Assembly: GCA_964418515.1 (NCBI GenBank)
Contig: CAYQLK010000003.1
Coordinates: forward strand, 1-50,196
Source: an uncultured Gammaproteobacteria bacterium
Lineage (GTDB): Bacteria; Patescibacteriota; Microgenomatia; CAYQLK01
Length of the DNA: 50,196 bases
Reading direction: 5' to 3'
The notes beneath the pieces are model-generated. The model did no database searches and had not been told where the DNA came from. It was given only the letters and a program-made list of their open reading frames with translations. Shown piece by piece: positions 79 through 12,201 of this stretch. The position numbers and the translations under genes were made by a program. Position 1 is the first letter of the stretch. Each line of letters starts with the position of its first letter.

Positions 79-315
79 GTGGCTGACAAAAACTTCATCA
101 AATTGTTCAGCAACGGCTCGCCAGAATGTCTGGCGATCATCGAGGAACTGACGAAACAAGGACGAGACTTCGTTGCCATATCGGCTGTGGCAACCGACGA
201 ATGGCCTGTGCCGAGAACGGAACTGTTGTATTTCACCTTCTACGGGTACAACAACATTCGGCGGTATCTACTGCCCGAACTCCCCGCAAGTTACGAGCTT
301 GTAGCAGTTTCGTAA
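79..315 (+). CDS. hypothetical 78-aa protein in the GC-rich left-edge segment; possible thioredoxin/glutaredoxin-like fold with SPEC where CxxC would sit
   Basis: GTG start lies 10 nt after GGAGG (64-68). The layout IKLFS / SPEC / LAIIEELTKQG / DFVAISAV / WPVP resembles Grx/NrdH secondary-structure order. A hairpin follows at 325-347. The fold assignment is by eye only. Confidence 0.4.
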   Translation: MADKNFIKLFSNGSPECLAIIEELTKQGRDFVAISAVATDEWPVPRTELLYFTFYGYNNIRRYLLPELPASYELVAVS

Positions 316-481: not shown

Positions 482-2215
482 TCAAGAAATTTTTTGATCG
501 GTGGAGCCTGGAGTGTCGTCGTCTATTAAGGTAGTAACTACGCCAGTTTGAGGAGTTTCTTTTCTAATGGTTGAGCGGATTTTTCTGGCAAGTGACCAGA
601 AAAGACGAATTTCTTCGACTCTTAAAATATGCGTTAAGAATAAATAAACTGTAAAACCAGCGGTGGTAGAAATACCTGTAAGAATAATTAGATTAACGGT
701 TTTGGTGGTGTCAAAAATAAGCTGATCAAGAAGTTTGATGGGGATGTACAAACTAAGGGCCATAAAAAATCCTGCGGTAAATATTTTGAATGCCGGAAGA
801 AGTAGTTCGCGACGGGAGAATTTGCCAACTTTACGATCAAGAAAAATAATCAACAAGGTTAGATTGATAATTGCTGAAATCGAACCCGATAATCCCAATG
901 CCCAAACGGGAAGGGTTAATATTTTGACAAAAATTAAGCTTAAAACAATATTTGTTCCGACAGAAATTAAGCCAATTTTTAGTGGAGTTACCGTATCGTG
1001 AAACGCATAAAACGCACGAACAATTAGCAATAAAACGCTTTGGGCAGCTATTCCAAACGAAAGTGTGGCGAGTGTTCTACCAGTTAGTACCGTTGCTGGC
1101 CAATCAAACTCGCTGGCACCAAAAATAAGTCTAACTAAAGGAATTCTTAGAACAATTAAACAAATTGCAGCTGGTACGACCAAAAAAAGCATTTGATGCA
1201 TTGAGGTCAGAATTGTTTTCTTGAAAGCTTCAATGTTGTTTTTGGCATACTCAAGAGAAAGCGCTGGAAGTGCTGCTTGGGCAATTGTGGCACCAAAAAG
1301 TCCGATTGGAACAACATACAGGTGACTAGCAAAATTAAAAGCAACAACGCTTTTGGCAGAAATAATAGAAGCTAAAGCAATATCAACTGTTTCGTTTATT
1401 TGGGAAGCAAACATTCCAACACTACGAGGAAGACCGAGACGCAGAAGTTTGACGAGGCTTGGTTCTTTGAAATTGAGAACGAATTGATAATTAAAACCTG
1501 AGGCATAGATTGCTGGAACCTGAATCAAAAAATGCATAATTGCACCCAAAACGACACCAATGGCTGGACCATAAATACCGAGATTGTTGGAGAGCAGTAC
1601 TGCGCCTAAAATAATGCCTAAGTTGTAGAAAACAGGAGCAAGAGCGGGAATCAAAAATCTTTGGCTCGACTGTAAAATTCCTGTAAAAAAACTAGAAACA
1701 GCTAAAAATATTTGGGAGATAATCATTACCCTTGTTAGGTTGACCAGAGTTGCATGTTGAGCTGGATCGGCAACTAACCCTGGAGCAATTAAAGCAACAA
1801 GTGGCTCAACAAAGATAAAACAAACCAAAGAAATTGCCACAAAGAATAAAAAGGCGATATTAATAATGTTACTAACCGTGCTCCAGAGTTTTTTGGCTTC
1901 TTGTTTTTGGGAAAGATCGGTAAAAATTGGAATAAACGAAACGGTAATTGTTCCAAATATCAAAACTTGAAAAATAAAGTCTGGCAGACGAAAAGCTGCC
2001 AAGTATGCGGCCAAATCTGGACCTGAACCAAAATATGCGGCAAGTAATCGGTCTCTGACTAACCCTAATATTCTGGAAGCCAGTGAAAGCCCCATAATAA
2101 GGAAAGCAGCTGAAAGAATTGATTTCTGCTTACGAAAAAGAAACTGTTGTGCCGCTTTGAGAGCTTTGGATTGCGATTGGGCTTTTGGCATCTGAGTTTT
2201 ATTGGTTTTTGACAT
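482..2215 (-). CDS. murJ: lipid II flippase MurJ/MviN
   Basis: 577 aa polytopic membrane protein. The N-terminal SRILGLVRDRLLAAYFG motif is typical of the MviN/MurJ family. TGA stop. Confidence 0.9.
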   Translation of the reverse strand: MSKTNKTQMPKAQSQSKALKAAQQFLFRKQKSILSAAFLIMGLSLASRILGLVRDRLLAAYFGSGPDLAAYLAAFRLPDFIFQVLIFGTITVSFIPIFTDLSQKQEAKKLWSTVSNIINIAFLFFVAISLVCFIFVEPLVALIAPGLVADPAQHATLVNLTRVMIISQIFLAVSSFFTGILQSSQRFLIPALAPVFYNLGIILGAVLLSNNLGIYGPAIGVVLGAIMHFLIQVPAIYASGFNYQFVLNFKEPSLVKLLRLGLPRSVGMFASQINETVDIALASIISAKSVVAFNFASHLYVVPIGLFGATIAQAALPALSLEYAKNNIEAFKKTILTSMHQMLFLVVPAAICLIVLRIPLVRLIFGASEFDWPATVLTGRTLATLSFGIAAQSVLLLIVRAFYAFHDTVTPLKIGLISVGTNIVLSLIFVKILTLPVWALGLSGSISAIINLTLLIIFLDRKVGKFSRRELLLPAFKIFTAGFFMALSLYIPIKLLDQLIFDTTKTVNLIILTGISTTAGFTVYLFLTHILRVEEIRLFWSLARKIRSTIRKETPQTGVVTTLIDDDTPGSTDQKIS

Positions 2216-3162: not shown

Positions 3163-4368
3163 CTAGTTAGACGGAGTCGGCGTTGGAACTGGATAAAGTG
3201 TGTCTTGAATAAATTTGTGAATTTGATCAAGACTACCTGAAGCTGGGGTTAAAACGTACTGGAGACCGTAGGTATTCGAGATGGGTGGATTAATAAGCAG
3301 AGGGTTATCACCATCGGTTGAGATAACTGAAGAGGATATTTGCCCTGCTCTTGCCTGTTGGAATAATTCAAAAAAGTCTGGGAATTCTGAAGGTGAAATA
3401 TTAGTGTCGATTGACTGACTAAAAGCATTGTAAAGTGAAAGAATCTTAGTTGGATTAAAAACCCCCTCGAGTGAGAAGATTTTGTCTTTGACTGCACTAA
3501 TTACTTTTTCTTGACGTTTGGAGCGAGCAAAGTCGGAGTTTTCGTCATTAGTACCTTTTCTGGAACGAACATATTTAAGCGCTGTTTGTCCATCCATATG
3601 AGTAAGTCCTGCCTCAAAATGCAGATGCTCGTACCTGCAAGTGAAAGGGTCCTCGCCCTCTACTATTTGATTATTGGAATCAAGAAGCTTAACTCTTCCA
3701 ACTCCATCTCCGTCTGTAACGGTTTCGTATTTTAGACCACACATGTTTTTTTCTTCGCCACTAATTGGATACATGTAATCATCGAAGGTTTGGTCGACTA
3801 TGATATCGACACCACCAAGTTCGTCTATAGCTCTGGTAAAGCCATTAAAGTCTAGGCGAACAACATAGTGGATCGGTACACCTAATATCTCACTGACAGC
3901 GTCTGAGGCTTGAGTAATGCCCTGGGTTTTGCTTTTTTCAACACCAAACGCATAAGCGGTATTGATCTTGGCTTTTATGGAATCGACCCAAAAATCTCTA
4001 GGGATAGAAATTAAGTTAGTGTTTTTGGTGTTCTGATTGTAGGAAGCAAGAATAAGTGTGTCAGTAAGGTTGGGACCATCGTGGCCTTCCCCACCAGTAC
4101 CAAGAATGAGGATATTGGTCCTACCTCGGTCATTAATTATATTTGGGCCAGAATTGATAATAGGATTGTTGAGAATACTCTGTGTGGCATTTCTTAAATG
4201 AGGAATAAAAAATGATGCTACTGCTAAAACAAAAAAACCAATTAATATCAGTCCAATTATTTTAAGTTTGCGAGAGGATTTTGCACTAACTTTGTCGGAT
4301 TTTGTATGCGTACTTGCACTGATAACTTTCCCCCTTTTTTTAGTAGGGGTTGAATTAAGGCTTTGCAT
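3163..4368 (-). CDS. LytR-CpsA-Psr (LCP) family cell-envelope glycopolymer transferase
   Basis: N-terminal TM anchor, then RTNILILGTGGEGHDGPNLTDTLILASY and ISIPRD motifs typical of LCP domains. The start overlaps the tpiA stop (TAATG). Confidence 0.85.
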   Translation of the reverse strand: MQSLNSTPTKKRGKVISASTHTKSDKVSAKSSRKLKIIGLILIGFFVLAVASFFIPHLRNATQSILNNPIINSGPNIINDRGRTNILILGTGGEGHDGPNLTDTLILASYNQNTKNTNLISIPRDFWVDSIKAKINTAYAFGVEKSKTQGITQASDAVSEILGVPIHYVVRLDFNGFTRAIDELGGVDIIVDQTFDDYMYPISGEEKNMCGLKYETVTDGDGVGRVKLLDSNNQIVEGEDPFTCRYEHLHFEAGLTHMDGQTALKYVRSRKGTNDENSDFARSKRQEKVISAVKDKIFSLEGVFNPTKILSLYNAFSQSIDTNISPSEFPDFFELFQQARAGQISSSVISTDGDNPLLINPPISNTYGLQYVLTPASGSLDQIHKFIQDTLYPVPTPTPSN

Positions 4369-5030
4369 TATTTGCAGAGATTAATTATTTGGTTAAATAA
4401 ATTGATATCAGTTGAAGCTTTGCCAACTAGAGCGCCGTCGATATTTTCTGCATCAAAAAAATCTTTAATGTTTTCAACAGTGACACTGCCACCATACAAC
4501 ACAGTCTGACAACCAGTTATTTCTTTGATTTTTGTAATTTTTTCACTTGCGACTTTACCGGTTAATGGCTGGGCACCTGGGTTGGTTGAAATTGATTCTT
4601 CCGGTTCGAAAGCCAAAACTAAATCTGAGTAATCCCCCAACCTTTCGGTGGTGAGTTCAGAATAATTACCACAGACTATTGGATGAATATTTTGCCCTCT
4701 TAGATTCTCAACTTTTAGCTGGATATCTTCGGCGGTAACGCCAAAAAGTCGGCGAGTTTCGGAGTGTCCAACAAGTGAGTATTTGGCCAAACCTTGGATG
4801 ATTTCGGCAGGAACTTGTCCAGTAAAGGCACCAATGGTTTTAACTGAAACATCTTGAGCACCTAGGGAAATATTGCCAGAAACCGGCAAATTTGCAATTG
4901 CTCCAAGTACAGGGAAACTGGGACAGACAACAATTTCTAGAGAAGAATCGGAGATATTTGTAAACCAATCACTTGCCTGATCAACGGTAAGGTTAGCCTT
5001 CCAGTTGGCGACAAGCATGAAATTTTTCAT
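4368..5030 (-). CDS. tpiA: triosephosphate isomerase (short, 220 aa)
   Basis: ANWKAN, GAQDV, GAFTGQV, VGHSETR, FEPEE and YGGSV motifs appear in TPI order. Confidence 0.85.
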   Translation of the reverse strand: MKNFMLVANWKANLTVDQASDWFTNISDSSLEIVVCPSFPVLGAIANLPVSGNISLGAQDVSVKTIGAFTGQVPAEIIQGLAKYSLVGHSETRRLFGVTAEDIQLKVENLRGQNIHPIVCGNYSELTTERLGDYSDLVLAFEPEESISTNPGAQPLTGKVASEKITKIKEITGCQTVLYGGSVTVENIKDFFDAENIDGALVGKASTDINLFNQIINLCK

Positions 5031-5035
5031 AATTT

Positions 5036-5302
5036 TCAGACGAGATTATCTGAAAGAAATTTGTCGAATTTGTCTGGAGTGGTTGCACCAAGATGACGAG
5101 CAACTTCTACATCGTCTTTTAGAATAATGTAGGTTGGGATTGAAGCAACGTTGTATTTAATGGAGTCGTCAGGTGTTTCGTCGACATTTATTTCTACGAA
5201 CTCTATCTTCCCATCGTATTTTTTCTTCATATCTTCAATAATAGGATGCATCAGTTTGCATGGGCCACACCACTCTGCCCAGAAATCAAGGAGTTTAATC
5301 AT
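5036..5302 (-). CDS. trxA: thioredoxin
   Basis: 88 aa with the WAEWCGPCK active site. Confidence 0.9.
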   Translation of the reverse strand: MIKLLDFWAEWCGPCKLMHPIIEDMKKKYDGKIEFVEINVDETPDDSIKYNVASIPTYIILKDDVEVARHLGATTPDKFDKFLSDNLV

Positions 5303-5330
5303 ATTTTTAAAAAACTTAGAATACTTTTAT

Positions 5331-7112
5331 ATGGATAATAAGGAAATTTTAGCAGGTCTAAATACAGCACAACAAGAAGCGGTTAAAAAAACTGATGGCC
5401 CAGTACTGGTTTTGGCTGGAGCTGGGAGCGGAAAAACTAAGGTTTTGACTCAGAAGCTTTGCTATATTCTGTCCAACAAACTTGCCTATCCTTCAGAAAT
5501 ATTAATGGTAACGTTTACGAATAAGGCGGCAGCGGAAATGAAGGAAAGAGTTGTTAAGCTGTTGGGGGAAAATTCTGATTTGCCTTTTATGGGGACTTTT
5601 CACTCATACGGCGCGAGGTTTTTGAGAATTGAGGGTCAGCACACGGGATTATCTTCAAATTTTGTGATTTATGACGAAAAAGATAGTGTCGAATTAATTG
5701 GTACAGTGATGGAAGAGCTAAACATTGGTACCAAAACCACCAAACCCCAAGCTGTTAAATACAATATTAGTAGTGCAAAAAACGAAATGGTTTCGGCCAA
5801 GGAATATTTGGGATATGCCAAAGGTTATTTTCAGGAAACGGTCGCAAAAGTTTATTTGGGATACGAGCAAAAAATGCAGGAAGTGAACGCGGTTGATTTT
5901 GATGATTTGCTAAAAAAAGTAGTTGACCTATTAAAAACAAATTCCGAACTAAAAGAAAAATATTCCAAAAGATATAAATATGTTTTGGTTGATGAATATC
6001 AAGACGTTAATGCGGCCCAGTATCAATTAACAAAAATACTATCTAGTAAACATGGGAATATTACAGTTGTTGGTGATGCTTCTCAGGCGATTTATGCTTT
6101 TCGGGGAGCTGATTTTCGAAATATTGTTAATTTTGAAAAAGATTTTAAGGATGTGGAAGTTATCAACTTGGAGGAAAATTACAGATCAACAAACACGATT
6201 TTGTCTGCAGCTAATACAGTTATTTCGCAAAACAGAAGCCATCCAGTGTTAAAACTTTGGACCAAAAATGGACAAGGAGAATTAATTAGACTTATTCAAG
6301 CACCAGACGAACAAGCAGAAGGAAATATTATTGCCTCGGTCATTATTAATTCTGGAAGAGATTTTGATGACTTTGCAATCCTCTATCGAACAAATGCTCA
6401 ATCTCGCTCAATTGAAGAGTCATTAATAAAAAGCGGCGTGCCATACAACCTTGTTGGTGGGGTTAGGTTTTATGACAGAAAAGAAATAAAAGATGTGTTG
6501 GCATATATGCGAATGATTGCCAATGAAAAAGATTTGGTAGCAAGGGAAAGAGTTATGAAATTGGGTAAAAGAAAATATCAGCAATTTATTTTAAGAGTCG
6601 ATGAAATAAATAAAGAGCATCCGCCATCAGAAATATTGTCGTCGGTACTAGAGATAAGTGATTATCTATCAAGGTTTGATGAAAAAGACCCTGAAGAAGC
6701 AGGAAGGGTTGAAAATATTAGGGAGCTTTCTTCGGTGGCTGAGAAGTTTGATAACTTGGATGAATTTTTGGAAAATGTGGCGCTTATGGAATCAGGGTCT
6801 GACTTAAGAAAAAACGGTGAGCATACTTCTGAAGTGACATTGATGACAATCCATTCGGCTAAAGGGTTGGAATTCCCTGTGGTTTTTATGACCGGCATGG
6901 AAGAAGGATTATTCCCCCATTCCAGATCTCTTATCGACCCAGCACAGCTCGAGGAAGAAAGAAGGCTTTGTTATGTTGGGATGACCAGAGCAAAAGAAGT
7001 ATTGTTTTTGACTTACACCTCTAATCGACTATATTTTGGCGTAAGAGGAAGTAGTATTCCGTCAAGATTTTTGGGTGATTTGCCGGAAGATTTGGTTAAA
7101 AATCTATCGTAG
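5331..7112 (+). CDS. UvrD/PcrA-family ATP-dependent DNA helicase (compact, 593 aa)
   Basis: GAGSGKT (motif I), DEYQDVN (II), GDASQAIYAFRGA (III) and YVGMTRAKE (VI). I set the start at the internal ATG 5331 (MDNKEILAGLN) because the 5151 start would run antisense through trxA. Confidence 0.85.
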   Translation: MDNKEILAGLNTAQQEAVKKTDGPVLVLAGAGSGKTKVLTQKLCYILSNKLAYPSEILMVTFTNKAAAEMKERVVKLLGENSDLPFMGTFHSYGARFLRIEGQHTGLSSNFVIYDEKDSVELIGTVMEELNIGTKTTKPQAVKYNISSAKNEMVSAKEYLGYAKGYFQETVAKVYLGYEQKMQEVNAVDFDDLLKKVVDLLKTNSELKEKYSKRYKYVLVDEYQDVNAAQYQLTKILSSKHGNITVVGDASQAIYAFRGADFRNIVNFEKDFKDVEVINLEENYRSTNTILSAANTVISQNRSHPVLKLWTKNGQGELIRLIQAPDEQAEGNIIASVIINSGRDFDDFAILYRTNAQSRSIEESLIKSGVPYNLVGGVRFYDRKEIKDVLAYMRMIANEKDLVARERVMKLGKRKYQQFILRVDEINKEHPPSEILSSVLEISDYLSRFDEKDPEEAGRVENIRELSSVAEKFDNLDEFLENVALMESGSDLRKNGEHTSEVTLMTIHSAKGLEFPVVFMTGMEEGLFPHSRSLIDPAQLEEERRLCYVGMTRAKEVLFLTYTSNRLYFGVRGSSIPSRFLGDLPEDLVKNLS

Positions 7113-7137
7113 CTAAAAAAAGTTTAGAATAGAGAAA

Positions 7138-8133
7138 ATGATTAGGATTGCACAAATAAAGGACAAAAAAAGATTTAGTGAGTCAGCAAAGCACGTCATG
7201 CAGAGTTGGGAGTGGGGTGAATTCCGAGAAAAGACAGGCAACAAAATATTGCGAATAATTGAAGAGAACGATAAAAATTGGAATGTTTTTTCTTTGACGG
7301 TACACAGTGTCCCAAAAACTAAGTTTAATATTGGCTATATGCCAAAATCCATTTGGCCGAGTGAACAAGTTTTGGTTTTTTTGGAAGGCTTGGCTAGAAA
7401 AGAAAATATTGTTTTTATAAAAATTGAGCCAGATGTAGAAATTGAAAAATTTAAGTTAAAAAAATCAAAAATAAAAATCTTAAAAAGTTCTAAAGATATC
7501 TTTGCAAAAAGTACATTTTTGGTTGATTTAACAAAACCTGAAGAAGACCTGTTTAGAAACCTTAATCAAAAAACCCGCTATAACGTACGCGTTGCCCAAA
7601 AAAATAATGTTGTGATTGAAGTTGGTGACAAGATTGATGATTTTGTAAAACTTCAAAAAGAGACTGCAAAAAGAAATGGATTTTATTTACACCCTGACTC
7701 GTACTACAAAACAGTTTTTGAGCTATTTGCAGAGAAAAAGATGGCAAAGATAATTAGTGCTAAATATAAAGGAAAAATTTTGACTTCTTGGATGTTGTTT
7801 ATTTTTAAGGATGTTTGGTATTACCCGTATGGCGGATCTAGTTCTGAACAGCGTAATTTGATGCACTCGAACTTAGTTGCTTGGGAAGCAATAAAATTGG
7901 CTAAACGCGAAGGTGGAAAAGTATTTGATATGTGGGGAGCGTTGGGAAAAAATCCAAATGAAAAAGATCCTTGGTATGGATTTCACCGTTTTAAGTCTGG
8001 TTATGGCGGAGAGTTGGTTGAATATCCTGGAGCTTACGATTTGGTTGTAAATCAAAAAATGTATCTACTAATGAACACAGTTGATAAAGCTAGATGGATA
8101 TTTCTTAGATTAAAAAAGAGGGTGGCTGCCTAG
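7138..8133 (+). CDS. FemAB-family peptidoglycan interpeptide-bridge aminoacyltransferase (FemX/MurM-like)
   Basis: 331 aa. The size and the YNVR..AQK.., LHPDSYY and W.YPYGGSS.. pattern resemble the lipid II:aminoacyl-tRNA transferase family. Recognised by eye. Confidence 0.65.
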   Translation: MIRIAQIKDKKRFSESAKHVMQSWEWGEFREKTGNKILRIIEENDKNWNVFSLTVHSVPKTKFNIGYMPKSIWPSEQVLVFLEGLARKENIVFIKIEPDVEIEKFKLKKSKIKILKSSKDIFAKSTFLVDLTKPEEDLFRNLNQKTRYNVRVAQKNNVVIEVGDKIDDFVKLQKETAKRNGFYLHPDSYYKTVFELFAEKKMAKIISAKYKGKILTSWMLFIFKDVWYYPYGGSSSEQRNLMHSNLVAWEAIKLAKREGGKVFDMWGALGKNPNEKDPWYGFHRFKSGYGGELVEYPGAYDLVVNQKMYLLMNTVDKARWIFLRLKKRVAA

Positions 8134-8158
8134 TCAAAAAAGACTAAACAACCACCCT
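8112..8158 (-). terminator. hairpin plus T6 terminator for the GC-rich cassette, overlapping the FemAB-family gene stop codon
   Basis: On the minus strand: AGGGTGG (8158-8152), an inner hairpin TAGTC-T6-GACTA, CCACCCT (8125-8119), then C TTTTTT (8117-8112). On the plus strand the same stem follows the FemAB-family stop, so it could act in both directions. Confidence 0.45.
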
Positions 8159-8177
8159 TAGGGTTTGGGCAAAAAAG

Positions 8178-8549
8178 TTACCGCGCCTTGGCCTTGGCAC
8201 CAACGCGATATTTCTGCAGGATTCGATCGACACCTTCGACGAGGGCGCGCTTTTGGAGCGGCTCCAAACCTGTGAAACCTGGAGTGACCAGGTGTTGATT
8301 TGGCTTGATCTGTTGGGCGTCCTGATGCCAACCTGGATAGTTTTCCAGCTCGAAAGCAAAAACTCCCTCGATCGCAAGAGCGACCTCTTCGACCTTATCG
8401 TCGGGAAGAAGCTGCCGGCGATCGTAAGTTGGCACAGGTCGAAGTGTGTTGATTCGGCCTTGATTCATCAGCCTCCAGATACTTTGGAGCCATGCCGTGA
8501 CTTCTTGCACGGCTTCTTCGCGCCGACTTTCGACTTGTGTAACTTTCAT
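8178..8549 (-). CDS. hypothetical 123-aa protein (GC-rich cassette, distal gene)
   Basis: Open frame with high GC3. Its ATG overlaps the stop of the upstream 48-aa ORF (ATGA). No motif recognised. Basic tail GAKAKAR. Confidence 0.55.
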   Translation of the reverse strand: MKVTQVESRREEAVQEVTAWLQSIWRLMNQGRINTLRPVPTYDRRQLLPDDKVEEVALAIEGVFAFELENYPGWHQDAQQIKPNQHLVTPGFTGLEPLQKRALVEGVDRILQKYRVGAKAKAR

Positions 8550-8692
8550 GGCAAAAGTGGCTCCAGGGTGCGGATGATCTTGTCCTTCTGATCGGGACAG
8601 ATTCGATCTGGGCGCATCGGCATGGGTTTTGACGGTGAGAATGGGGTGGTTGAAGGTGAGGTTCGGGTCGGTGTGGTGGATGGACTGGGCAT
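8546..8692 (-). CDS. possible 48-aa small ORF (MPSPSTTPTRTSPSTTPFSPSKPMPMRPDRICPDQKDKIIRTLEPLLP), below the ORF-track cutoff
   Basis: I translated it by hand. ATG is at 8692, GGAGG (8710-8706) lies 13 nt upstream, and the TGA stop overlaps the next ATG. The N-terminal half may only be a by-product of a C-rich, G-poor tract. Confidence 0.3.
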   Translation of the reverse strand: MPSPSTTPTRTSPSTTPFSPSKPMPMRPDRICPDQKDKIIRTLEPLLP

Positions 8693-8724
8693 GTCTTAAG
8701 TGTTTCCTCCTTTGAATGGTGAGC

Positions 8725-9213
8725 TTATTCGGTCTCGCTGTCTAACAGCTTCCAAGTGTCAGGATCGCCAAGGTGACGCTTGTCGTGTCTGGTAAAACGC
8801 CGATCAAGCGAAGGGTCTGCGCTGTCAGGAATTCCCAGATCAGGAAACTGAAATGCGCGGAGGAGGGCGAAGGTTTTTTTGAGTAGGCCGACTCCGATGT
8901 TTACGGTGCCGTCCATACTCATGTCTCCGGTTTTGACACGACTCTTGATCAACCAAAGATCCTCTTCGGTAACGAGAATTTCTTCATAGTTATCCTCGCA
9001 CCCTTCATAAAAATCGCCGTTTATGGGAACAAGTTCATCATAAAGATGTCCCAGCCCCGAAAGGAGCGATCGATTTGGGTCAACCTCTTGGTATGCTGTT
9101 GATCCGCGCTGCTCAGGGTGAGCTGGTTGTGGAATACCATCGATTGAGTCCACAAGGTGGACGACTTCGTAGACGTTGAGCTTGAGTCCAAGGACTCTTA
9201 CATTGTCAGACAT
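8725..9213 (-). CDS. hypothetical acidic 162-aa protein (GC-rich cassette, proximal gene)
   Basis: AGGAGG (9222-9218) lies 4 nt from the ATG. High GC3. About 30 D/E versus 16 K/R by my count. No TM segment, signal peptide or catalytic motif recognised. Confidence 0.55.
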   Translation of the reverse strand: MSDNVRVLGLKLNVYEVVHLVDSIDGIPQPAHPEQRGSTAYQEVDPNRSLLSGLGHLYDELVPINGDFYEGCEDNYEEILVTEEDLWLIKSRVKTGDMSMDGTVNIGVGLLKKTFALLRAFQFPDLGIPDSADPSLDRRFTRHDKRHLGDPDTWKLLDSETE

Positions 9214-9294
9214 TGATCCTCCTTGAAGACCGAGGTGTTTTTCTGTGCTTTAGGATTAAGGTGCCAGAAAGCGTTAACTTTTCTGTTGGCGGAA

Positions 9295-9324
9295 ATTATA
9301 TACCTAATGTCTAATTTAGGCTAA
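9295..9324 (-). promoter_or_regulatory. candidate sigma70-type promoter for the GC-rich cassette
   Basis: On the minus strand: TTAGCC (9324-9319, the last two helicase codons), N18, then TATAAT (9300-9295). Read-through from the helicase gene is an equally good alternative. Confidence 0.3.
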
Positions 9325-12201
9325 TGAGGCGGGACAAATCTTATTAAAAGGACAATTAGTACAACTAAACTTGTCAGGTTTGGGAATGAAATTCTCGGAC
9401 ACAATTCCTTCTTTTACTTTTGTAATATCACTCATGGCTTTTTGATAAAGTTTTTCATCAGGTTTGCGTTTGGCATAAATATTATTTTCTACAAAATAAA
9501 GTCCGATTTCGTCAGCTGGGTGGTGATATTTTTCTTTGTAAGCCAGTGCATAAATTTTAAGTTGAATCGAGCTATTCACACGCTCTTTGGCTTTTTTCTC
9601 ATCAACACCTTGTGATGTTTTGAAGTCCATGATGGTTGTTTTGTCTTTGTCGATGGTAATTAAGTCGAACCTTCCTGTAATCATTACTCCGTCGTATACA
9701 AGATTGAATTTTTCTTCGACTAACAAATTCTCGTATTGAGTGTCTTTTTGATTTTGGTAAAACTCACTAATTATTTGTTTGCCTTTGTTGAATAACTCTT
9801 CCCTGTTTTGGGCATTAAAAAATCCAACATCGGAAAAGTTTGATGTATAAACATTAATTAATTCTTTGCTTGTAATTGGAGTATGTGATTTTTTGGCGAG
9901 ATAAAAAGCTTCTAGGGATTTGTGAACTGCAGTTCCGAGAACCATTGCTCCTGTCTGGCTTTTGGGAAGCTTGAGCAGGTAGTTATATCGGTATTGAAGA
10001 GGACAAGTTAAATAACTATTAATTGAATCTTGATTAAGTTTCAGTGGATGATTTGGTAACACTTTCTTTTCTTTTTGCACGACCATTAAAGGGAGCTGTT
10101 CGCTTGAAGCAAAGCGGCTGATTTTTTCAATTGCGTTAAGTTTGGTTGGGACGACTTCTAAATCTTGTTTGCCGAATGACTCCAAAAGAAATTGCGATGG
10201 TTTTTTTGATCTGGCCCCACCATAATCTTCTGCCCAAGTAAGAAACAGGTTTTCTTTTGCTCTGGTAACGGCAACATAAAAAAGTCTTCTCTCCTCTTGA
10301 AGATCGCTTTGTTTGGAATTATTTGCCGAATCTTCTAATAACTCGTTGGGGATACTAATTCCTTGAGACTTTGACCTTGATGGAAATCTATCAGAAACCA
10401 AATTGATAATAAAAACACTGTCAAACTCAAGTCCTTTCGACGAGTGAATCGTTAATACATTAACCGCCTCAAGTGATTGGTCTAGTGTTGCAGTAGTTGA
10501 GGTATCACCAGACTCCTCGAGTAGTACAAAGGTGGTGATGTAGTTAATAACTGAAGGGTCGATCGTCGAGCTGATAAATTCTGAAAGTTTTTCAAAAAGT
10601 TTAGAAATGTTTTCGATTTTTCTAATATCTTCAGTTTTGTTTGACTTTTGGTAAGTCTGAAAAACTTTGTGATCGAGCAAAAATGTGTATAAAAGTTCAG
10701 CAACATTTTTTTGTATTGCAATTGCAGCATATTTTTGTAAATCCGAAACTAAAGTTTCAATTTTTGTTTTTTCGGAATCGGGAATTTTTAATTCATCAAA
10801 GTTAGAAATCGTTTCGAGAAGCTCAAATAATTTAATGTGCCTATTTCGGGTATAAGCGGCCAGTTTAATCATTATGTCCGGATCAATACTGTAATATTCC
10901 GAAACACCTAGGTGATATAGACTCAAATCGTCTTCAAAGTTAGTTAAGGTTTTGAGAAAGAATATTAGATTTTTTACTTCGGGTGTTTGATATAACGAAG
11001 TCGTTCCAACGGACTGAACAGGAATACCGACATTTTCTAGGGCGCGAATAAAAGGAATGGCGTGACTTGCAGCTCTTGATAGTATGGCAATGTCGGAGTA
11101 TTTTTTCCCAGATTTGTTTAACTCAATAATTTTTTGTGTTACTAGCTCTACCTCGTCACTTAATGTTGTGCCTCGTAGAATTTGAGGTTTGGTTTTGGAC
11201 GTGTTAACAGCGGCTTCTAATTTTTTATTTATCTTTGCGGCAAACTCTAGCCGGTCGGGGTTATTGTTTTGAATGACTTCATAGGCTAAGTCTAGAATCC
11301 CCTGATTGGATCTGTAGTTTTTGGTTAAAACAAATTGTTTGGCATCTGGATAATTAGTTTTGAAAGAAAGAATATTGGAAATCGAAGCGCCACGAAATTT
11401 GTAAATAGATTGATCATCATCCCCAACTACGGTTAAGTTGTGGTGTTTACCACAAAGCATATTAACCAAATCGTTTTGCGCGAGATTAGTATCTTGGAAT
11501 TCATCGACAAGAATATATTTGTATCTATTTTGATAGTTCGTAAGAATATTTGGATGTTCTTTGAAGGCAAGGCGAACTAAATATAGTAGGTCTGAAAAGT
11601 CGACAAAATTACCAAGTCTTTTTAGTTCTTCATACTGACTAAAACAGTTGGCAAGTTCAGTGAGTTTGGCTGATTCGGCAGAATCTTCAAGTTGGGAAAC
11701 GTGCAAAAGTAGTGATTGACTGGTGATATTTTCATCTTTTAGGTTGCTAAAAAAAGAAGTCAAGTCGCGGAGAAACTTAAGAGGATTATTTACAGGTCTA
11801 AAATATTCAAGACTAAGACTATAAAGGTGAGACCTTAGAAATAGAATTTGCTGATTTTGAGTGAGTATTTTGTAGTCAGGGGACAGACCAACATCGTAGG
11901 CAATATCCCTTAGAATCGAGTCGGCAAAAGCGTGAAAGGTAAAAACCGAGATTGAAGAAAAAACATCAGGTAATAAATCATAGACTCGAAAATCCATTTC
12001 CTCTGAAGCTTTTTCAGTAAAAGTAAGGGCTAAAATTTCTTCAGGTTTAGCTAGTTTTTGCTCAATTAAATATGCGATCCTTCTGGTAATTACTGCTGTT
12101 TTACCTGTGCCGGCTCCGGCAATTATTAATACAGGACCCTCTGTTTCGATAACGGCATTTTTTTGCTCAGGATTGAGGTTTTTTAGGATGTCTGGTTTCA
12201 T
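9316..12201 (-). CDS. UvrD-family helicase fused to a C-terminal PD-(D/E)XK nuclease with a Cas4/AddB-type Cys cluster (AddA/AddB-like single-chain helicase-nuclease)
   Basis: AGAGTGKT, DEFQDTN, GDDDQSIYKFRGA and YVAVTRAKE helicase motifs. The C-terminal domain has CPLQYRY, GRFDLI, MDFKTS, QLKIYALAY and CTNCPFNKIC (C..CX2CX5C). Confidence 0.85.
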   Translation of the reverse strand: MKPDILKNLNPEQKNAVIETEGPVLIIAGAGTGKTAVITRRIAYLIEQKLAKPEEILALTFTEKASEEMDFRVYDLLPDVFSSISVFTFHAFADSILRDIAYDVGLSPDYKILTQNQQILFLRSHLYSLSLEYFRPVNNPLKFLRDLTSFFSNLKDENITSQSLLLHVSQLEDSAESAKLTELANCFSQYEELKRLGNFVDFSDLLYLVRLAFKEHPNILTNYQNRYKYILVDEFQDTNLAQNDLVNMLCGKHHNLTVVGDDDQSIYKFRGASISNILSFKTNYPDAKQFVLTKNYRSNQGILDLAYEVIQNNNPDRLEFAAKINKKLEAAVNTSKTKPQILRGTTLSDEVELVTQKIIELNKSGKKYSDIAILSRAASHAIPFIRALENVGIPVQSVGTTSLYQTPEVKNLIFFLKTLTNFEDDLSLYHLGVSEYYSIDPDIMIKLAAYTRNRHIKLFELLETISNFDELKIPDSEKTKIETLVSDLQKYAAIAIQKNVAELLYTFLLDHKVFQTYQKSNKTEDIRKIENISKLFEKLSEFISSTIDPSVINYITTFVLLEESGDTSTTATLDQSLEAVNVLTIHSSKGLEFDSVFIINLVSDRFPSRSKSQGISIPNELLEDSANNSKQSDLQEERRLFYVAVTRAKENLFLTWAEDYGGARSKKPSQFLLESFGKQDLEVVPTKLNAIEKISRFASSEQLPLMVVQKEKKVLPNHPLKLNQDSINSYLTCPLQYRYNYLLKLPKSQTGAMVLGTAVHKSLEAFYLAKKSHTPITSKELINVYTSNFSDVGFFNAQNREELFNKGKQIISEFYQNQKDTQYENLLVEEKFNLVYDGVMITGRFDLITIDKDKTTIMDFKTSQGVDEKKAKERVNSSIQLKIYALAYKEKYHHPADEIGLYFVENNIYAKRKPDEKLYQKAMSDITKVKEGIVSENFIPKPDKFSCTNCPFNKICPASLA

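Follow-up and report, generated by a model that had tools for sequence, protein, structure and literature searches.

In a 50,196-nt stretch of DNA from an uncultured bacterium of the Patescibacteriota (candidate phyla radiation, CPR; contig CAYQLK010000003.1, positions 1 to 50,196; hereafter the window, or WIN in trees and comparisons), we found a cassette of three small genes, A, B, and C, inserted between the genes of a helicase-nuclease and a FemAB-family protein. Taken as a whole, the observations are best explained by a phage-derived operon that was domesticated in the CPR host, a reading that we hold with moderate confidence; for its historical part, the phage origin and a single, old acquisition, our confidence is high. 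The whole insert covers positions 8159-9324 on the minus strand (~1,166 bp), as determined by aligning its junctions to the empty site in a sister genome (L015). An earlier note on the window, made by eye, had described a compact, self-contained, laterally acquired module, and this description was supported by the empty site in L015, by outside relatives found only on phage or phage-like contigs, and by the conservation of the expression signals.

The insert carries the three minus-strand open reading frames (ORFs) of 162, 48, and 123 aa that the earlier note had described. ORF1 (gene A; 8725-9213, minus strand) encodes an acidic alpha/beta protein of 162 aa (isoelectric point (pI) 4.6, net charge -14), ORF2 (gene B; 8546-8692, minus strand) encodes a micro-protein of 48 aa that is rich in Pro and Thr and in which one Cys is invariant, and ORF3 (gene C; 8178-8549, minus strand) encodes a 123-aa protein that is predicted to be all-helical and, having been called near-neutral, proved to be basic (pI 9.05). 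In codon alignments of four genomes, the ratios of nonsynonymous to synonymous substitution rates (dN/dS) were 0.12-0.15, 0.05-0.27, and 0.07-0.16 for ORF1, ORF2, and ORF3, respectively, and most differences were at third positions. These ratios and the dominance of third-position differences indicate that all three ORFs, including that of 48 aa, are protein-coding and under purifying selection. ORF2 is a genuine, highly conserved gene; of the 19 loci in which the junction of ORF1 and ORF3 is covered, every one contains it. An antisense ORF of 112 aa (8253-8591, plus strand) was rejected as a gene because its first codon positions face the variable third positions of the sense frame.

The members of the ORF1 family are ~140-235 aa long and acidic (median pI 4.6) and have a conserved amphipathic helix, IG..LL.KLY.LL..F. 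The ORF2 peptides are mostly 46-50 aa long, contain exactly one Cys, and follow the overall motif MP..PTRT...[IL]CP.QK...P.LP, with a Pro/Thr-rich N-terminal half that starts with MP.P and includes PTRT, and the C-terminal motif DP.[KR][IL]CP.QK.[KR][IV].R...P.LP. In 11 loci, ORF2 lies in the +1 frame over the 3′ end of ORF1, with an overlap of 8-173 nt; this overlap occurs where ORF1 has a long acidic tail, and the two are separate genes in the WIN-type CPR copies. The stop codon of ORF2 overlaps the start codon of ORF3 (ATGA/GTGA or TAATG/TGATG) in 12 of the 16 loci. The residues W20, W25, G31, P40, Y42, R44, E67, P72, H75, Q79, and D108 are invariant in ORF3. No transmembrane (TM) segment or signal peptide was found in any of the three proteins. 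Within the species, ORF3 is polymorphic in its basic C-terminal tail (window 8178-8200; P0007, L047, L048, and L012): the window protein ends in ...YRVGAKAKAR (123 aa), and P0007, represented on 16 contigs, is 100% identical to it up to residue 116 and then ends in ...EPSGTQLPRVTRRAR (131 aa).

Among 5.8 billion proteins, the close homologues of ORF1 and ORF3 formed 5 and 8 clusters, respectively, and all of them were encoded at the same site, between a 961-aa UvrD/PD-(D/E)XK helicase-nuclease and the FemAB-family gene (WIN, L012, L002, L005, L008, L036, and L050/51). In the sister genome L015, the stop codons of the helicase and FemAB genes are ~15-28 nt apart with no insert between them, and in a tree of helicase, FemAB, and RmuC this genome fell outside all cassette-bearing genomes (WIN, L012, L002, L005, L008, and L036). 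Distant CPR relatives likewise showed the convergent helicase and FemAB genes next to each other, so that the syntenic relatives agree with the lateral gain proposed earlier. The position of L015 as an outgroup and the adjacency in distant CPR genomes indicate that the empty site is ancestral and that one gain suffices, and the CPR cassettes formed one clade in the ORF3 tree. Species-representative genomes were scanned with the helicase alignment, and the helicase relatives beyond its own clade (31-38% identity) were nearly all labelled WWE3, Dojkabacteria, Saccharibacteria, or Patescibacteria, which places the organism with the Patescibacteria. The insertion thus occurred once, in the ancestor of a genus-level CPR/Patescibacteria clade related to WWE3/Dojkabacteria, and has been inherited vertically since then.

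The divergences of the cassette and of its flanks grouped the genomes alike (WIN, L012, and L002 versus L005 and L008). Synonymous divergence (dS) was ~0.75-1.7 within subclades and saturated between them, and that of the cassette was comparable to that of the flanks. Purifying selection together with a divergence about equal to that of the flanks points to a single old insertion, neither recent nor a chimera. The same junctions recurred in dozens of assemblies made independently of one another, among them a 660-kb contig of a metagenome-assembled genome (MAG), which also excludes a chimera. The cassette evolves faster than its flanks, and this was extreme in L036, in which ORF1 (P0014, at the same helicase/FemAB site) was 40% identical and the flanks were 77% identical.

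The insert is flanked on one side by the final codons of the helicase-nuclease gene and on the other by the hairpin that was the ancestral terminator of that gene. On the helicase side, the sequence common with L015 stops at GCCTCA, and the helicase C-terminus LA* is newly encoded by the insert; on the FemAB side, the match to L015 restarts at the GGTGGTT arm of the hairpin. Judged as a genomic island, the insert had no integrase or transposase, no tRNA/att target, and no direct repeats, and consisted of the three ORFs only. The ORF content and the scans for tRNAs and repeats agreed in this with the earlier note, which had listed no integrase, transposase, tRNA, or flanking direct repeat: no tRNA was present anywhere in the window, and the insert had no convincing flanking repeat, only chance-level repeats of which none was conserved in relatives. 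A 15-nt inverted pair (I5) near the cassette ends and a direct pair (D1) were set aside as chance, since neither was kept in relatives. Rfam 15 gave nothing at the gathering threshold in the window, and only chance-level matches (E >= 0.6) in 7900-9600. In two genomes, a gene of ordinary low GC for a 677-aa multi-TM protein lies between the cassette and the FemAB gene (L002, 9101-11134; L036, 9112-11145); the window, L005, L008, and L050 lack it, so that the same junction of convergent genes has undergone a second insertion or deletion.

An exhaustive profile search with ORF1 retrieved 48 proteins (47 sequences in the family alignment), and the ORF3 profile retrieved 63 proteins, all unannotated. 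Homologues were recognised at the protein level down to about 30% identity, and the downstream partners of the phage ORF1 homologues matched ORF3 with E values of 1e-13 to 1e-16. As judged from these sequences, A, B, and C form a strict triad that, outside the CPR clade, occurs on uncultured phage or phage-like contigs only, in at least five different phage contexts. In L044-46, which are siphovirus-like genomes of 85-90 kb with genes for a tape-measure protein, PolIII-alpha, RecA, ThyA, and HMUDK, the late operon ends with the module, which directly follows genes for 2-TM holin-like proteins and for Amidase_2 (with or without peptidase) endolysins. In L038, P0017 shares its contig with a family-A DNA polymerase, and the 124-aa gene downstream of it is coupled to a Terminase_6C large terminase (TerL); in L056, the module is followed by two HNH_3 genes and the small terminase (TerS). 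P0027 (L040, a 61-kb contig) lies downstream of an intein-containing ribonucleotide reductase (RNR) and is convergent with tail genes, P0016 (L037) has downstream of it two genes, of 50 and 143 aa, and after these Dam, and P0026 (L042) is on a contig of GC 0.62 with a CI/Cro-like helix-turn-helix pair. The module adjoins lysis-type or packaging genes in six of ~nine distinct phage contexts and is coupled to an endolysin or TerL in several of them. No relative was found in GenBank phages and PLSDB plasmids by tblastn, or in IMG/VR scanned with the ORF1 and ORF3 alignments.

Several of these contigs had further features of their own. The L044-46 phages carry HMUDK-type kinases (thymidine hypermodification pathway) together with GIY-YIG and HNH genes, and they appear to be an unsampled phage group, with no match in GenBank phages or IMG/VR. 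In L040, the RNR large subunit (7032-9617), immediately upstream of the module, has a LAGLIDADG_3 insertion (intein-like homing endonuclease). In L053, a 193-aa gene (1451-2032) lies between ORF2 and ORF3 and matched a PHROG of homing endonucleases (E 3e-4); it looked GIY-YIG-like by eye, with no support from Pfam.

The earlier note had suggested a high-GC cellular host or neighbour as the source of the cassette, whereas the gene contexts point to phages: the donor was a phage lineage, and probably a GC-rich one. A donor among cellular organisms of high GC, such as the host of an episymbiont, would account for a cassette GC of 0.50-0.57, well above that of the recipient, and L042 with its CI/Cro-like pair could be a prophage in a high-GC bacterium; this origin is nevertheless very unlikely, because every non-CPR locus that could be judged has phage hallmarks (TerL, TerS, tape-measure protein, endolysin, phage-type polymerases, and homing endonucleases) and no family member has a cellular annotation. 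Still less room is left for an artefact, whether a chimeric assembly or ORFs that arose by chance in non-coding GC-rich DNA or in a structured RNA. The composition does change abruptly, and GC-rich DNA is prone to long spurious ORFs, but the same junctions recur in many independent assemblies and samples, purifying selection is frame-specific in all three ORFs, and protein homologues at about 30% identity and the lack of an Rfam match argue against it, so that we regard its probability as negligible.

The sequence signals of the cassette suggest that it is a real, expressed three-gene operon, which we consider very probable. The candidate promoter (9295-9324, minus strand) consists of TTAGCC (9319-9324), an 18-nt spacer, and TATAAT (9295-9300), and the element overlaps the helicase stop codon, the TTAGCC also encoding the new helicase C-terminus LA. 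The sequence GGTATATAAT was unvaried in 7/7 aligned cassette-bearing sequences, including the divergent L036/L051, whereas the neighbouring intergenic DNA varies. The promoter proposed earlier is therefore present as a sequence and its -10 box is conserved; its -35 box, which matches at only 3/6 positions, fails a consensus scan. The leader or 5′-untranslated region (UTR) (9214-9294, minus strand) contains a conserved block, CTGGCACCTTAA, and the Shine-Dalgarno (SD) sequence AAGGAGG (9218-9224) located 4 nt upstream of the ATG of ORF1, which is kept across the clade as CAAGGAGGA, CAGGGAGGA, CGGGAGGAT, or GGAGGATT. The block, (T)CTGGCACCTTAA(A/T)CC at window 9250-9270 (alignment A7), lies ~35 nt downstream of the -10 box, is kept in the divergent L036/L051, and may be an operator or a 5′-UTR element.

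ORF2 has the SD sequence AAGGAGG (8706-8712, minus strand) 13 nt upstream of its ATG, and a GGAGG-like site is found upstream of ORF2 in nearly all loci, within the coding sequence of ORF1 where the genes overlap. The ATGA overlap of ORF2 and ORF3 (8546-8549) provides for translational coupling, and the two AGGAGG sites and this coupling were all in the sequence as the earlier note had placed them. In the window, 28 of the 36 long ORFs had no SD match of at least 4 nt, and a match of 7 nt was reached by ORF1 alone, in agreement with the claim that the translation signals of the cassette differ from those of its host. A single host gene (start about 25167) has GGAGGT. The counts suggest that SD-independent initiation is the norm in this organism, and against host genes that mostly lack SD sites the conserved, strong SDs of the cassette are the more striking. 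The predicted intrinsic terminator (8112-8158, minus strand) is a 17-pair hairpin at 8119-8158 with a loop of 6 and a T-run; as claimed, it reaches into the 3′ end of the FemAB gene, its 3′ arm and T-run being the FemAB stop region. A homologous hairpin stands directly after the helicase stop codon in the empty-site genome L015, and every cassette-bearing genome keeps a hairpin and T-run after ORF3, differing in sequence. The arrangement indicates that the cassette entered between the helicase gene and its terminator, which it would now use as its own. Throughout the clade, the -10 box, SD sites, and terminator hairpin have all been kept.

The composition of the segment also sets it apart. The GC of 8134-9315 was 0.503, compared with 0.356 in the rest of the window (z = 5.3), and the highest GC of any other 1,182-nt window in the 50 kb scanned was 0.427; the GroEL region at 27.3-28.9 kb was the sole other mild GC bump. 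GC at third codon positions (GC3) was 0.50, 0.59, and 0.54 in ORF1, ORF2, and ORF3, respectively, compared with 0.29 +/- 0.05 in 38 long ORFs of the window. The hand counts on which the earlier note had based a sharp jump in GC (34/60, 34/60, 19/60, 25/60, and 8/60) were all exact on recount, and the sliding-window analysis confirmed the excess. Of the abrupt switch described at both edges, the helicase side did not hold, since the leader of 110 nt there is AT-rich (GC 0.30-0.43) and GC climbs only from the start of ORF1 (~9213). The cassette was GC-rich to the same degree in every relative at this site, with GC3 0.2-0.3 above that of the flanks in the CPR genomes. Orthologues of ordinary composition in relatives would have spoken against a foreign origin; orthologues were present, but with the same GC excess. 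In the phages, the GC of the module tracks that of the phage (0.42 vs 0.40, 0.49 vs 0.49, and 0.49 vs 0.47), and high GC is thus not required by the module. The GC3 of the phage modules was equal to or slightly above that of their neighbours, most clearly in L046 (0.37-0.39 at 9446-10402 vs 0.22-0.26 at 3330-9446), where the module may be recent too or have a mild intrinsic preference for GC-ending codons.

Searches for a known family or fold yielded no identification. Pfam, PHROGs, NCBIfam, and PADLOC gave nothing for the three window proteins, and the phage versions and all members of alignments A4 and A8 had no recurrent library match. In PADLOC-DB v2, no defence family matched any of the three proteins at E <= 10, and profile searches against PDB sequences gave nothing. 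Models predicted with AlphaFold2 (AF2) from shallow alignments had mean predicted local distance difference test (pLDDT) scores of 64 for ORF1 and 65 for ORF3, the latter with four helices, and Foldseek found nothing for them at E <= 0.001 in PDB and BFVD. The ORF1 model had weak BFVD matches (probability ~0.9, TM-score 0.37-0.65, E 0.06-0.3); the matched proteins, which are uncharacterised and come from Flavobacterium phage FCL-2, Stenotrophomonas phage Salva, and Agrobacterium phage Atu_ph07, may be remote structural relatives of ORF1. The absence of recognisable domains noted earlier was therefore confirmed in every library searched, and profile and structure searches placed none of the proteins in a well-known housekeeping family.

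Several known systems share features with the module. As in phage morons, a unit of atypical composition, here with a candidate promoter and a terminator, is inserted between two adjacent, unrelated conserved genes, takes variable positions in different phage genomes, often at operon ends or downstream of a lysin, and was kept by a bacterium; unlike in morons, three orphan genes are obligatorily linked, there is no prophage, integrase, or att site, and the unit is inherited vertically across a CPR clade. Type II toxin-antitoxin operons resemble it in being small and coupled, in pairing an acidic with a basic protein (in the CPR copies), in occurring in both mobile and chromosomal DNA, and in evolving rapidly, and differ in that the module has three genes, no known domains, a fixed locus, and a charge pairing that is not kept in phages; no toxin or antitoxin fold was matched in Pfam, NCBIfam, or PADLOC by the three proteins and their family members. 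In groundwater Patescibacteria, horizontal gene transfer, genomic islands, and prophages are documented, with islands of 2.7-45 kb found by predictors (PMC12455944). The cassette is likewise lateral DNA in a streamlined CPR genome, and some carrier contigs come from small-cell fractions of groundwater, but this 1.17-kb three-gene insert has no mobility genes and is too small for such predictors.

A parallel in gene arrangement is offered by the spanins Rz/Rz1 of lambda and LysB/LysC of P2, which, like the module in several phages, follow holin and endolysin genes and include an overlapping small +1-frame gene, a Pro-rich protein, and a conserved Cys (PMC6139136). An i-spanin is defined by an N-terminal TM domain (TMD), and an o-spanin by a lipoprotein signal with a lipobox Cys, [LVI][ASTVI][GAS]C (PMC6139136). 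With a mean Kyte-Doolittle value of at least 1.9 over 19 residues as the threshold, a TMD was found in 0/47 ORF1 members (median maximum 1.27), whose N-termini contain charged residues. A lipobox was found in 0/16 ORF2 peptides; they start with MP.P or MS, lack a hydrophobic h-region, and have their single Cys in the C-terminal third, after [KR][IL]. The spanin-style pair with a small gene in an alternative frame was present, in the form of the +1-frame overlap in the 11 loci, and a location in a lysis cassette was seen in L044-46, was probable in L042, L038, and L056, and was not seen in L040 and L037. An identity as a two-component spanin was rejected because ORF1 has no TMD and ORF2 no lipobox; unlike the spanins, moreover, the module always includes gene C and has no sequence similarity to them. 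Around the lysis genes of six carrier loci, no ORF had a lipobox, a weak negative that fits monoderm hosts. The disruptin of phage phiKT (gp28) is a small, soluble, signal-less protein that can perform the last step of lysis (bioRxiv 10.1101/515445). ORF2 resembles it as a small signal-less protein encoded with lysis genes, and differs from this lone cationic amphipathic helix in being Pro/Thr-rich, variable in charge, and always accompanied by A and C.

Under the phage-derived, domesticated reading, A, B, and C would form a stoichiometric cytoplasmic complex, as suggested by their obligatory co-occurrence, their coupling, and the absence of TM and signal sequences. In phages, this complex would serve a late stage of infection, during or close to lysis or packaging, a role suggested by its place as the last unit of holin-endolysin cassettes (L044-46), its coupling to TerL (L038), and the nearby TerS (L056); to a late, lysis-linked role in phages we give somewhat less than an even chance. 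The earlier note had offered an immunity, antitoxin, or anti-defence role as speculation, whereas the gene contexts speak for such a late phage function. In the CPR host, the genes would be transcribed from their own promoter (TATAAT), translated from strong SDs, and terminated at the hairpin common with FemAB. The domesticated copy might hinder a late stage of related phages, in a manner like superinfection exclusion, or act on the envelope, and such an anti-phage or envelope role is a conjecture of low probability. The evolution of the cassette at a rate above that of its flanks, extreme in L036, would fit a conflict-type function. The GC excess would be the slowly decaying signature of a GC-rich donor. 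More boldly, and with as little weight as the conjecture on the host, A-B-C could be a hitherto unrecognised class of late-gene module of phages, in which a hidden +1-frame micro-gene encodes one part of a soluble complex of three proteins. The module would be the third unit of holin-endolysin cassettes in phages of monoderm/CPR-type hosts, would perform or time the final step of lysis, and would have been co-opted by a CPR lineage as a stand-alone operon with constitutive expression, directed either at lysis or packaging by related phages or at the envelope of a partner cell.

Several points weigh against this reading. Every statement about activity draws on gene context, as the library and structure searches gave no handle and confidence in the AF2 models was low (pLDDT 64-65). 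The context itself is not uniform, the module lying after RNR in L040 and before Dam in L037, and a freely moving accessory unit fits this as well as a lysis function does. The lack of TM and signal sequences in all three proteins is unusual for envelope-acting lysis factors, the reason for a CPR cell to keep a lysis-linked complex is hypothetical, and the -35 box of the candidate promoter is weak (3/6). The history of the composition is also strained: between subclades, identity at 4-fold degenerate sites was for the most part 0.27-0.44 for the cassette, compared with 0.28-0.42 for the flanks, close to the random expectation of ~0.25 and thus near saturation, yet the GC of these sites (GC4) is still 0.45-0.67 in the cassette compared with 0.18-0.44 in the flanks. 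Simple amelioration can account for this only if the ancestral GC3 was ~0.8 or more and the gain came shortly before the split of the subclades.

The last point also favours the alternative that GC-richness is actively maintained, either through selection that acts on synonymous sites or on the structure of mRNA or DNA, or through repeated gene conversion by the copies in phages. In closer pairs, synonymous change at 4-fold sites was somewhat slower in the cassette than in the flanks, and the module GC3 at or above that of its neighbours in phages, L046 above all, points in the same direction. We nevertheless consider maintenance improbable. The same proteins are encoded at a GC of 0.42 in L046, no Rfam family was matched, the antisense 112-aa ORF carries no coding signal, and the divergence of the cassette follows that of the flanks, which argues against repeated replacement. 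On the WIN and L012 branches, third positions of the cassette showed 37 GC>AT and 18 AT>GC changes, compared with 61 and 172 in the flanks, and a 2:1 excess of GC>AT is expected of decay to the composition of the host. These counts were polarised by parsimony, which is biased with distant outgroups (an implausible AT>GC excess in the flanks), and only the contrast between cassette and flanks in the triplet WIN, L012 | L002 was used. The GC excess therefore looks like slow amelioration from a GC-rich (~0.6) donor, which we favour over maintenance with some reservation.

For the function, a selfish addiction module of the toxin-antitoxin or abortive-infection type, in which the acidic protein neutralises a basic partner and loss is costly, would suit a small operon whose genes are tightly coupled and overlap at ATGA, which has a candidate promoter and a terminator of its own in the CPR genome and takes variable positions in phage genomes. 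The pairing of an acidic A (pI 4.6) with a basic C (pI 9.05) in the CPR copies and the faster evolution (40% identity of ORF1 in L036 vs 77% of the flanks) are also as expected of such a module. However, no toxin, antitoxin, or DNA-binding domain was found in PADLOC, Pfam, and NCBIfam, and the phage C proteins are acidic to neutral (pI 5.5-6.9), so that the charge pairing is not general. In addition, the cassette is fixed at one site in every member of the CPR clade examined, with no patchy gain and loss of the toxin-antitoxin kind, and in several phages it is translationally coupled to endolysin or TerL; we therefore doubt this function. Doubts are graver for a new terminal lysis factor that replaces spanins or disruptin, with A and B as two spanin subunits released through the holin lesions. 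Spanins are missing from about 15% of phages, a soluble peptide can take their place (bioRxiv 10.1101/515445), and no lipobox ORF competes for the role near the lysis genes of the six carrier loci. The place directly after holin-endolysin genes in L044-46 and near lysis-type genes in L038, L042, and L056 is suggestive, as are the +1-frame overlap, the 22% proline, and the invariant Cys of B, which resemble Rz/Rz1. Against these likenesses stand the absence of a TMD from all 47 A proteins and of a lipobox or hydrophobic N-terminus from all 16 B peptides, the net charge of B (-4 to +7), which is not that of an amphipathic cationic helix like disruptin, and the occurrence of the module away from lysis genes (L040 and L037). 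An outer-membrane disruptor would also be of no obvious use to a CPR cell, and this role is accordingly quite unlikely.

The cassette adds to what is known of Patescibacteria. Lateral DNA in these bacteria is a known phenomenon; what is new is the module of three orphan families, its hidden micro-gene, its strict architecture, its repeated occurrence in lysis cassettes, and its fixation in a CPR clade. The three linked families are unrepresented in Pfam, PHROGs, PDB, GenBank phages, IMG/VR, and PLSDB, and one of them is a 48-aa micro-protein of a size often missed by gene callers. The recurrent place after holin-endolysin genes makes the module a testable candidate for a late or lysis-associated function. 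For CPR, the empty-site outgroup and the exact junctions give a clean, datable case of the fixation of a minimal phage gene set in a streamlined genome. The case also shows that a compositional anomaly does not imply recency, since the divergence of the cassette is about that of its flanks, from which it still differs by 15 GC points. Among sequences whose gene context could be read, its nearest neighbour in the ORF3 tree is on the GC-0.62 contig L042.

Some minor observations concern the genome and the rest of the window. The four closest MAGs (L012-L015) carry a Gammaproteobacteria label, which is probably a mislabel, and a GC of 0.36, a contig of 660 kb, and the near absence of SD sites also look CPR-like. 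The ORF of a PcrA/UvrD helicase in the window (5151-7112, TTG start, 653 aa) is ~60 aa longer than its 593-aa orthologues in all relatives, and translation probably begins at an internal ATG near 5331. Downstream of MurJ (482-2215, minus strand), the first 300 nt of the window form a second patch of high GC (0.45-0.50), which holds a 78-aa ORF (79-315, plus strand) and is cut off by the end of the window.

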